Shown in pieces: positions 10,228-11,590 of a stretch of 64,000 bases of DNA. Source of the DNA: a virus (Duplodnaviria > Heunggongvirae > Uroviricota > Caudoviricetes); IMG/VR virus record IMGVR_UViG_3300045988_161152. One strand, 5' to 3'. Under the pieces are notes generated by a model, which worked only from the letters and a program-made list of their open reading frames with translations, made no database searches and was not told where the DNA came from. Made by a program: the position numbers and the translations under genes. Within the stretch, counting starts at the first letter, position 1; every line of letters begins with the position of its first letter.

Positions 10228-10767
10228 CTACCACCAACTGCTAGCTTTCTTCTCTCTAGCTTTTCCTTCGCTTTGCAGTAAATCTTTACTTCCTGTAGAA
10301 ATATTTCTATTTGCATCAGCCTCAGACTGAATTACATCTGTCTTAGCTGCTCTCTCCTTCAACTCCTGCTCTATAAAATCGTTTTCTCGCTGGACACGAG
10401 CCGCTTTTGCTTGCAGTTCGAGTTTCATGCTTTCGAGTTGCAGCTTGCGAAGCTCATCCTCATAAGCTTGATCTCGCTTCTTGTCATTTGCTAGCTCGGC
10501 TTCTCGTTTCGCTCTACGTTCATTTTCTGCAGCAACACGCTGTTTTTCGCGTGCAGCAGCGGCAGATGCTGCTTTTTCTCTTCTAATACGTTCAGCTTGT
10601 GCTTGTTGGCGAATAAGTTCTTTTCTGGCATCCTCAGCTTGCTGCTCTTTAGCTCGCCCTTCATTTTCCGCTTGAGCAATAGCAGCAATTTGACTTTGCA
10701 ACGAGTTAGCCAAGGCAGTGCCTACACTAAACGTAGAAAAGATTAGAAATAAAATAATTTTATTCAT
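10228..10767 (-). CDS. secreted/periplasmic coiled-coil protein (signal peptide, E/R/K/A/Q-rich)
   Basis: N-terminus MNKIILFLIFSTFSVGTALA is signal-peptide-like; remainder highly charged heptad-like (AERIRREKAASAAAAREKQRVAAENERRAKREAELA). Confidence 0.5.
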   Translation of the reverse strand: MNKIILFLIFSTFSVGTALANSLQSQIAAIAQAENEGRAKEQQAEDARKELIRQQAQAERIRREKAASAAAAREKQRVAAENERRAKREAELANDKKRDQAYEDELRKLQLESMKLELQAKAARVQRENDFIEQELKERAAKTDVIQSEADANRNISTGSKDLLQSEGKAREKKASSWW

Positions 10768-10770
10768 AAA

Positions 10771-11292
10771 TTATTTCTTTTCTGGACAAGTAGCATTTGG
10801 CTGAATTCGAGTTTCATTATCTTTAGTTGAAATAAGCACAGCAAGCCCCGTTGTAAACTGGCATGCTTTACCAACTTGAGTTGAAGTGAACACCTTAGTT
10901 CCTTCTTTATAAGTCAGTGAAACACCTTCAACAATTGTTTTATCACTAACCAAAGAACCAGCCGCTGCACCAAGAGCCGCACCACCAGTACCGCCAGCTA
11001 CAGCACCCAGTGTCGATGTGCCTTTAACATTATAACCGGCAACGCCCCCAGCAACAGCTCCCAGTACCGCACCAAATGTCTGTGCCGCTTCTTTATTAGC
11101 TTTATTATCAACTTTCACTTTAGCTGGAAGCACAGAGATAATATTGACTGTCTTTGTTTCCTGCTTCGAATTCAATTGAGCGGTATCATAAACATCGGCA
11201 GCATAATCAGCACCGCTAGATTGACACCCAGAAAGAAGAATTGCAGATACAACAAGAGCGCATAAAGTATACTTTTTAGACATAAGAATCAT
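10771..11292 (-). CDS. SlyB/Pcp-like outer-membrane lipoprotein (glycine-zipper)
   Basis: Lipobox LLSGC; Gly-zipper FGAVLGAVAGGVAGY...GAVAGGTGGAALGAAAGS; overall layout parallels E. coli SlyB; true start probably the ATG at 11283. Confidence 0.55.
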   Translation of the reverse strand: MILMSKKYTLCALVVSAILLSGCQSSGADYAADVYDTAQLNSKQETKTVNIISVLPAKVKVDNKANKEAAQTFGAVLGAVAGGVAGYNVKGTSTLGAVAGGTGGAALGAAAGSLVSDKTIVEGVSLTYKEGTKVFTSTQVGKACQFTTGLAVLISTKDNETRIQPNATCPEKK

Positions 11293-11559
11293 CCCAGAAA
11301 AACAAAAACCGGCGAGAAGTTACCACGAGAACGGAAAGTAAACAAGAATACTCCCATTGACTTATATCAATTAATCAACTTTTTATAAGCTATCCCTAAC
11401 TTATTGTGTATAGCTGAAAAGTCAGAGACAAGTTCACCATCTGCATTATTTCTTAAGTTAATAGTTTATTGCTAACTTAATTTATGTATCGACTATTGAT
11501 ATCCATCTTAAAGTTACAATATCCCTCTGCATTATTTTTCATCACAAATAATATATCTA

Positions 11560-11590
11560 TTGCACGACACTAATCTGCTCTAATAAATTT
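11560..11590 (+). promoter_or_regulatory. sigma70-like promoter (-35 TTGCAC, -10 ATAAAT) overlapped by C1 operator-like site (tcTGCTCTAATAAATTT); P51/Op51-like
   Basis: Hexamers with 17-bp spacing; operator matches ATTGCTCTAATAAATTT at 15/17. Confidence 0.55.

Follow-up and report, generated by a model that had tools for sequence, protein, structure and literature searches.

Gene content and protein families of the cassette

The window, a 64,000-nucleotide stretch of the IMG/VR virus record IMGVR_UViG_3300045988_161152 (Caudoviricetes), contained a two-gene cassette at the site that the sim genes occupy in phage P1, encoding a lipoprotein related to Escherichia coli YfgH and an exported helical protein related to YfgI. 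A previous reading of the sequence alone (hereafter the sequence-only reading) had described two minus-strand genes with a 3-nt gap, and both open reading frames (ORFs) were confirmed: a yfgH-like outer-membrane lipoprotein gene of 173 amino acids (aa) at positions 10771 to 11292 (- strand), corresponding to upf50.5 of phage P7, and a yfgI-like gene of 179 aa encoding an exported long-helix protein of the DUF5384 family at 10228 to 10767 (-), corresponding to P7 upf50.0. Three nucleotides separated the stop codon of the lipoprotein gene from the ATG of the helical protein gene, and the pair lay, as had been proposed, between pmgC/tub of the tail operon on one side and c4-icd-ant on the other. 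The lipoprotein ORF began with MILMSKKYTLCALVVSAILLSGC, comprising a lipobox at L20-S21-G22-C23 with Gln at +2 (Q24), so the protein lacks an inner-membrane retention signal. Its 173-aa translation contained a GxxxG-rich segment, in agreement with the lipobox and glycine zipper recognized earlier, with the zipper forming a helical hairpin ahead of a C-terminal beta domain. This gene more likely starts at a second ATG, at 11283 (MSKKY...), which follows a GGGA. For the second gene, the description as a signal-peptide protein made almost entirely of charged helix was borne out: an N-terminal signal peptide is cleaved after Ala20, between ALA and NS (an identical 20-aa signal peptide is marked in the P7 record), the mature protein of ~158 residues was 41% D/E/K/R and 19% Ala, and AlphaFold modeled one continuous helix across residues 3 to 177 (mean predicted local distance difference test score [pLDDT] 88), ending at a C-terminal SWW. 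The likeness to TolA domain II that had been suggested for this protein was compositional only, as no TolA family was matched in Pfam (E ≤ 1) and no TolA chain in the PDB was retrieved by sequence or family profile.

The lipoprotein was 67% identical at the aa level to E. coli YfgH over its full length (E = 6e-73). A profile of 58 YfgH-family sequences matched SlyB (7ojf_A) over its full length (profile positions 9 to 163, E = 1.4e-9), and SlyB (SlyB13-BamA) was also the top Foldseek match (E = 5e-7, target-normalized template modeling score 0.61); only this top match was used because the AlphaFold monomer model was poor (pLDDT 56). Helices were modeled at residues 63 to 87 and 93 to 112. Among the 58 homologs (numbered after the first sequence of the alignment, which lacks Met1), the lipobox Cys was invariant and the Gly nearly invariant; within the zipper, G73, G77, and G81 were invariant and G85, G99, G103, G107, and G111 nearly so, and two C-terminal cysteines (C143 and C168) were invariant in the YfgH family. 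The protein thus carried what characterizes YfgH/SlyB lipoproteins, namely a lipobox with a residue other than Asp at +2, a glycine-zipper hairpin, and full-length homology, with Pfam Rick_17kDa_Anti falling below threshold (E = 0.0023). The earlier assignment to the SlyB type was upheld by the profile and Foldseek matches: "SlyB-like" is correct, and "YfgH-like" is the more precise label. Likeness to SlyB extended over the lipobox, an N-terminal beta-hairpin, the glycine-zipper helical hairpin, and the C-terminal beta domain, but identity to SlyB of E. coli and Salmonella (cryo-electron microscopy [cryo-EM] structures 7OJF and 7OJG) was only ~23%. On our own reading of the profile alignment, SlyB also lacks the invariant Cys pair of the YfgH family. 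SlyB is not known to have a DUF5384 partner gene.

The helical protein matched Pfam DUF5384 (PF17358) at 147.8 bits against a cutoff of 25 (E = 3e-43, profile positions 4 to 145 of 145), which places it in that family, and was 47% identical to E. coli YfgI over its full length (E = 9e-46). In DUF5384 proteins the N-terminal charged half varied in sequence and length, and the C-terminal half (~93 to 179) was conserved up to an aromatic end. A DNA search matched the chromosomal yfgH-yfgI operon in 5,420 of 5,426 complete E. coli genomes at ~69% identity, and by homology of both products the phage-borne pair is a paralog of this operon. The sequence-only reading was right about the SlyB-type lipoprotein and missed both this paralogy and the identity with P7 upf50.5/upf50.0. 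Gene order, domain layout, and protein sizes were the same in the chromosomal operon (172/179 aa) and the cassette (173/179 aa), whereas the phage copy represented a divergent lineage with an unrelated AT-rich upstream region, divergence being greatest in the N-terminal half of the YfgI-like protein and, in the lipoprotein, in the loop that joins the two zipper helices. A strong hairpin terminator lies after chromosomal yfgI; the phage copy had none. A yfgH-like gene directly preceded a DUF5384 gene in all ten contexts checked, which came from four bacterial families and comprised the E. coli core genome, P7-type elements, insertion sequence-containing E. coli genomic islands, a P2-like prophage end, Mergibacter, Rahnella, and Xenorhabdus, with unrelated neighborhoods.

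Several further families were evaluated and rejected. TraT (PF05818) scored 23.1 bits (E = 7.2e-5) against a cutoff of 31, the similarity lying over the zipper region; Foldseek comparison with TraT decamers (9FS5 and 9FSM) gave E values of 1.0 to 1.1 and probabilities of 0.15 to 0.20, and the YfgH profile retrieved none of them at E ≤ 10. TraT is likewise an outer-membrane lipoprotein encoded by mobile elements (F-like plasmids, where it acts in surface exclusion), but it is longer (~225 residues) and has no partner gene, and neither of the two TraT structure papers mentions SlyB or YfgH. A match to Cor (E = 0.022) covered only the signal peptide and lipobox, marginal matches to Llp were restricted to the signal peptide, as was a match to an Rz-like PHROG (E = 0.038), and PADLOC-DB v2 returned no hit for either protein at E ≤ 1. 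A two-component spanin (Rz/Rz1) was rejected on the AXA cleavage site of the helical protein, the 151-residue SlyB-fold lipoprotein, and a locus outside the lysis region.

Both proteins were 100% identical to Upf50.5 and Upf50.0 of phage P7 (GenBank AF503408; AAQ07514 and AAQ07513), whose genes are the same at 98% DNA identity and occupy the same map position, between tubA(pmgC)/LPsit and Op(c4). The P7 record labels them "outer membrane lipoprotein of unknown function" (upf50.5) and "membrane protein of unknown function" (upf50.0). Cassette DNA was 98 to 100% identical in P7, SJ46, RCS47, and JL22. The sequence and a bare annotation have been public since the P7 genome was deposited, and the YfgH/SlyB and DUF5384 families were already known. 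No mention of upf50.0 or upf50.5 was found in the literature searched, and a paper on the diversity of P1-like elements (PMC6906374) does not mention the region. Inspection of public records (NC_050152, NC_031129, NC_042128, NC_019445, and OR339795) showed that several database labels for these proteins are wrong: the YfgH-like lipoprotein is listed as a "DNA methyltransferase" in PHROG 1277 and in several RefSeq phage records, and in the phi456 record the two proteins appear as "minor tail protein" and "tail tip protein".

Predicted prophage contigs provided a separate observation on chromosomal yfgI. Dozens of IMG/VR contigs (L041 to L096) ended 0.5 to 1 kb from a chromosomal-type yfgI with 47% identity to the window protein, and the phage TL-2011b record (JQ011317, 41366 to 42436) included yfgH plus only the C-terminal half of yfgI. 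There seems to be a common prophage integration site in or beside yfgI, with host flank included in "viral" records. Most of the 47%-identity matches were chromosomal yfgI at predicted prophage ends, and hence boundary artifacts rather than phage cargo.

The cassette as an allele of the sim hotspot

Alignment with P1 placed the gene pair in a replaceable cassette at 10200 to 11575 (-), the P7-type allele at the sim hotspot in P1-family phage-plasmids. The sequence was homologous to P1 (98% and 94% identity on the two sides) as far as 10199, just past the late promoter LPsit, and again from 11576, inside a C1 operator, so that a 1,376-bp cassette stood where P1 has the 1,513-bp simC-simB-simA. 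The sequence-only reading had located the pair in the neighborhood where P1-family genomes carry sim, and the alignment put it exactly at that site; it also settled a point on which that reading had been unsure, as canonical P1 lacked both proteins and had simC-simB-simA at the position. Like P1 Sim, the pair was encoded between pmgC/LPsit and the C1 operator of c4, on the same strand, and with exported products, but it differed in gene number, gene sizes, and the upstream region up to the C1 operator. There was no DNA alignment between the cassette and the P1 sim cassette, and neither protein showed similarity to SimA, SimB, or SimC (best BLASTP E = 0.26) or to any other hotspot allele.

We evaluated the frequency of the cassette in public plasmids and genomes. 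Among 508 PLSDB plasmids with pmgC, 168 (approximately one-third) carried it, all at ≥99% identity, which makes the P7-type cassette the most frequent single allele there; 137 had the full P1 sim cassette, and ~160 had other alleles that retained only the simA end. The PLSDB carriers were plasmids of E. coli and Salmonella whose sources were the gut or feces of humans and animals. The cassette was also found in 182 of 5,426 RefSeq complete E. coli genomes. The region is low in GC and is one of eight listed as highly variable in P1-like plasmids (PMC9603915), and papers on these plasmids describe it merely as "variable". Most hotspot proteins inspected had a signal-peptide-like N terminus (SimA, SimB, SimC, and the products of two other alleles, L004_b, L004_c, L005_b, and L005_c), so the hotspot seems specialized for exported proteins. 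The other alleles had no PADLOC hit, and PHROGs assigned them no function.

The alleles also bear on the origin of P1 simA. SimA of P1 (52 aa; L002, 4484 to 4642) was ~90% identical to the first ~42 residues of a 163- to 215-aa exported protein encoded by other alleles (L004, 3149 to 3640, and L005, 1614 to 2261). From this comparison, P1 simA looks like the 5' remnant of an earlier cassette exchange.

Mobile relatives and selection

Relatives of the pair were found on other mobile elements, and by sequence identity these are closer to the window pair than the core chromosomal genes are. Three E. coli contigs of 32 to 115 kb (L012 to L014) carried an 87%-identical cassette outside a P1 context, with an EamA transporter gene on one side and an insertion-sequence transposase on the other. 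Its flanks were still of the P1 type, comprising the LPsit hairpin, the start of pmgC, and the operator region, and this copy seems to be a piece of a divergent P1-like element that moved elsewhere. Another P1-like element (L035) had an 83%/80%-identical yfgHI-like pair at the same two breakpoints, beside a gene (6850 to 8109) for a 419-aa protein with an N-terminal membrane segment and a DUF559/REase_MTES_1575 nuclease domain; with weak PADLOC hits to PDC-S37 and Hhe, this gene is a candidate defense gene. A 72%/68%-identical pair lay beside tail-fiber genes at the end of a P2-like prophage. Such a position, beside the tail-fiber genes at a P2-like prophage end, is typical for exclusion genes carried as prophage cargo. 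Ratios of nonsynonymous to synonymous substitution rates (dN/dS) between the window and its mobile relatives were 0.06 to 0.13 for both genes, which argues that both are maintained by selection.

Upstream region and cassette boundaries

Upstream of the lipoprotein gene lay an AT-rich stretch (31% GC) at 11293 to 11573 (-), which was part of the cassette and is the presumed promoter region of the pair. The sequence-only reading had put this non-coding DNA at about 350 bp; it measured 281 bp, from 11293 up to the C1 operator at 11574 to 11590. It matched no known RNA family and contained no ORF of ≥30 aa. A promoter scan yielded a sigma-70-like site, TAGATA-17-AATAAT, at 11559 to 11531 (-). Beyond 11359, the upstream region was not conserved in the 87%-identical relatives. 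A direct repeat had been reported in this stretch, and it does exist, but with a different position and sequence: copy 1, CCATCTGCATTATTT, was at 11437 to 11451 (+), and copy 2, CCCTCTGCATTATTT, at 11523 to 11537 (+), overlapping the -10 of the promoter-like site. The consensus was CC[A/C]TCTGCATTATTT, the exact 12-mer TCTGCATTATTT starting at 11440 and 11526, and copy 1 read ATCTG rather than the CTCTG given earlier. A 12-nt exact direct repeat in the 281-bp stretch was reached by 16 of 2,000 dinucleotide shuffles, so the repeat is mildly non-random. The motif was absent from the 87%-identical relative and from all other fetched loci, and the P7-type copies, all ≥99% identical, were uninformative as a test of conservation of the repeat or the upstream region.

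The right boundary of the cassette fell in the C1 repressor operator of c4 (Op51/Oc4) at 11574 to 11590 (+), a 15/17 match to the C1 operator consensus that the P7 and P1 records annotate at the equivalent position. At the left boundary was LPsit (10179 to 10198, -), the late promoter driving pmgC-tub-pmgB-sit, transferred from the P7/P1 annotation through a gap-free alignment, with its -10 hexamer TAGAAT at 10184 to 10179. An inverted-repeat search and folding identified a perfect 12-bp-stem hairpin at 10154 to 10188 (-), in P1-conserved DNA just upstream of pmgC, whose 5' arm held the LPsit -10 and whose 3' arm held the pmgC Shine-Dalgarno sequence GAGG. The predicted fold of 10135 to 10232 (-; 98 nt) had a free energy of -31 kcal/mol (z = -5.4), and no terminator was found between the yfgI-like stop codon and this hairpin. 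Late transcripts would start in the hairpin loop and hence lack the 5' arm, and transcripts reading through from the cassette would fold into the hairpin, which could block access to the ribosome-binding site of pmgC. A possible role for the hairpin is as an insulator of tail-gene translation in lysogens.

Putative function of the YfgHI-like pair

Published work on the E. coli homologs provides the background for a possible role of the cassette. SlyB rings have been established by cryo-EM (7OJF/7OJG). Deletion of yfgH increased SDS/EDTA (sodium dodecyl sulfate/ethylenediaminetetraacetic acid) sensitivity and outer-membrane permeability and decreased outer-membrane protein levels, YfgH overexpression rescued depletion of outer-membrane biogenesis genes, and suppressors of slyB and yfgH deletions mapped to different pathways (preprint bioRxiv 10.64898/2025.12.22.696046). 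In addition, genetic interactions of yfgH with lptD were aggravating, and yfgH had a vancomycin phenotype (PMC3219608). At the locus that the cassette replaces, Sim was reported to cause superinfection exclusion, possibly by blocking DNA injection into the cytoplasm (Kliem and Dreiseikelmann 1989, as cited in PMC8546580). The sim genes were non-essential in a CRISPR interference screen (PMC10695390), and as P1 lacks the cassette, the latter is dispensable for phage growth.

We favor, at about even confidence, a role in lysogenic conversion, in which the pair would serve as a second YfgH/YfgI module that hardens or remodels the outer membrane against stress. Positions 10200 to 11575 represent an accessory cassette, a mobile and divergent paralog of the host envelope operon yfgH-yfgI, at the sim hotspot. 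The anatomy of the locus suggests that transcription of the pair starts in its own AT-rich promoter region, which adjoins the C1 operator and is separate from the late operon. By homology to YfgH and SlyB, the hairpin of the lipoprotein is predicted to insert into the outer membrane, and the lipoprotein may assemble into rings that hold outer-membrane proteins and lipid patches together. From its pattern of conservation, the C-terminal half of the YfgI-like protein (~93 to 179, with the SWW end) might dock on the outer membrane or on the ring, and the variable charged N-terminal rod might project into the periplasm, where ~155 residues at 1.5 Å each would span ~23 nm. Since the pair has its own AT-rich upstream region by the C1 operator, sits upstream of LPsit, and is dispensable for phage growth, it would act in the lysogen envelope rather than in virion assembly, with resistance to incoming phage, if any, arising as a side effect of envelope remodeling.

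Several points weigh against lysogenic conversion through envelope remodeling. The AlphaFold monomer of the lipoprotein was of low confidence, and the ring-like oligomers of YfgH are AlphaFold 3 models in a preprint, not shown experimentally (bioRxiv 10.64898/2025.12.22.696046). For YfgI, the sole report is nalidixic acid sensitivity of a deletion mutant (PMC3536626), with no established function. The promoter-like site matched the consensus at 9 of 12 positions, and the scan gave no more sites than expected by chance. As chromosomal yfgHI was already present in 5,420 of 5,426 complete E. coli genomes, an extra YfgHI dose makes a weak selective story. That the cassette exactly replaces one for exclusion hints at conflict between phages, as does the DUF559 nuclease neighbor of the pair in L035.

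Alternatively, the pair may be a dedicated superinfection-exclusion module that replaces Sim, in which outer-membrane rings and periplasmic rods block penetration of the tail tube or tape measure, or DNA transit, after adsorption; alternatively, receptors might be masked or sequestered. We regard this as distinctly less probable than lysogenic conversion, though still the foremost of its rivals. In its favor, the cassette precisely takes the place of simC-simB-simA, as an allele bounded by LPsit and the C1 operator. Also in favor are the exclusion and possible prevention of DNA injection reported for Sim (as cited in PMC8546580), the signal-peptide-like N termini of most hotspot proteins inspected, which fit a locus of envelope action, the membrane-anchored nuclease adjoining the 83%/80% pair of L035, and the 72%/68% pair by the tail-fiber genes of a P2-like prophage end. 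This evidence is positional, however: the proteins had no similarity to SimA, SimB, SimC, or other alleles and no PADLOC hit, the Cor match was confined to the signal peptide and lipobox, and TraT remained below the Pfam threshold and was recovered by neither family profile nor fold search. Moreover, the chromosomal orthologs are core housekeeping envelope genes with no phage phenotype reported in the papers found, and published evidence for YfgH concerns outer-membrane stabilization, not phage exclusion (preprint bioRxiv 10.64898/2025.12.22.696046). Homology argues for envelope conversion and position for superinfection exclusion.

A special case of lysogenic conversion, which we consider unlikely, is resistance of the TraT/Bor type, with the lysogen protected from complement, bile, antimicrobial peptides, or colicins in the gut and selection acting through host fitness rather than phage conflict. 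The carriers from human and animal gut or fecal E. coli and Salmonella fit such a role, and loss of YfgH sensitizes cells to detergent plus EDTA (bioRxiv 10.64898/2025.12.22.696046). The weak TraT similarity (E = 7.2e-5, 23 bits), mirrored by weak precomputed TraT hits in many family members, also points this way, but it is under the gathering threshold of 31 bits, and TraT was not retrieved from the PDB by the family profile (E ≤ 10) and reached only E ~1 in Foldseek. Less likely again is that the pair is neutral hitchhiking cargo, a host operon picked up by the phage-plasmid without being selected for any role there. Its location in a highly variable, low-GC region (PMC9603915) and the copy already present in the host would agree with this, but strong purifying selection on both genes (dN/dS of 0.06 to 0.13), the status of the cassette as commonest single allele (168 of 508 plasmids), and the independent acquisition of divergent pairs by several mobile elements argue against it. 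Least probable, and largely refuted, is a two-component spanin-like lysis or other late function, with membranes fused or disrupted at lysis. An adjacent lipoprotein and long helical protein with an N-terminal hydrophobic segment superficially resemble Rz/Rz1, and the genes lie directly upstream of the late operon on the same strand with no terminator in between. However, the helical protein has an AXA signal-peptidase site instead of a stable anchor and matched an Rz-like PHROG (E = 0.038) through its signal peptide only; the 151-residue SlyB-fold lipoprotein is no short proline-rich o-spanin; LPsit is downstream of the pair, not upstream; and orthologs are core chromosomal genes in nearly all E. 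coli, and P1 lyses its host without the cassette.

In E. coli and Salmonella, P1-family phage-plasmids are widespread and carry resistance genes; their few variable hotspots include the sim region (PMC9603915), and about one-third of P1-like plasmids carry the P7-type cassette in place of sim. YfgH has only recently been proposed as an outer-membrane stabilizer and YfgI has no accepted function, so a self-contained mobile pair provides a handle on SlyB-type rings in relation to phage or envelope stress and on the contribution of the DUF5384 partner. More speculatively, and in our view improbable, mobile yfgH-yfgI pairs could constitute an unrecognized class of envelope-level superinfection exclusion that functionally replaces Sim. 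Such a class would span the P7-type cassette, another P1-like allele, the P2-like prophage end, and genomic islands, with SlyB-like rings and ~23-nm rods stopping tails or DNA; if true, DUF5384/YfgI, a conserved orphan family, would gain a first mechanistic role. Should the pair do no more than duplicate a host function, the finding would be ordinary but would still correct the three erroneous database labels given above. To a specialist, a phage-borne member of the known YfgH/SlyB and DUF5384 families is not surprising.

Other features near the cassette

Beyond the C1 operator, a clear C4 antisense RNA lay at 11771 to 11856. Adjoining it, and overlapping the a1/b1 target region of c4, was a match to the Hfq-binding small RNA isrK at 11664 to 11745 (+), which scored 47.9 bits against a gathering score of 50. 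Further along, kilA (13329 to 14113) lacked 16 bp that P1 and P7 both have, the missing bases falling between 13588 and 13589. This deletion shifted the reading frame and left two overlapping ORFs (13329 to 13649 and 13568 to 14113), and kilA is therefore probably inactive in this element.

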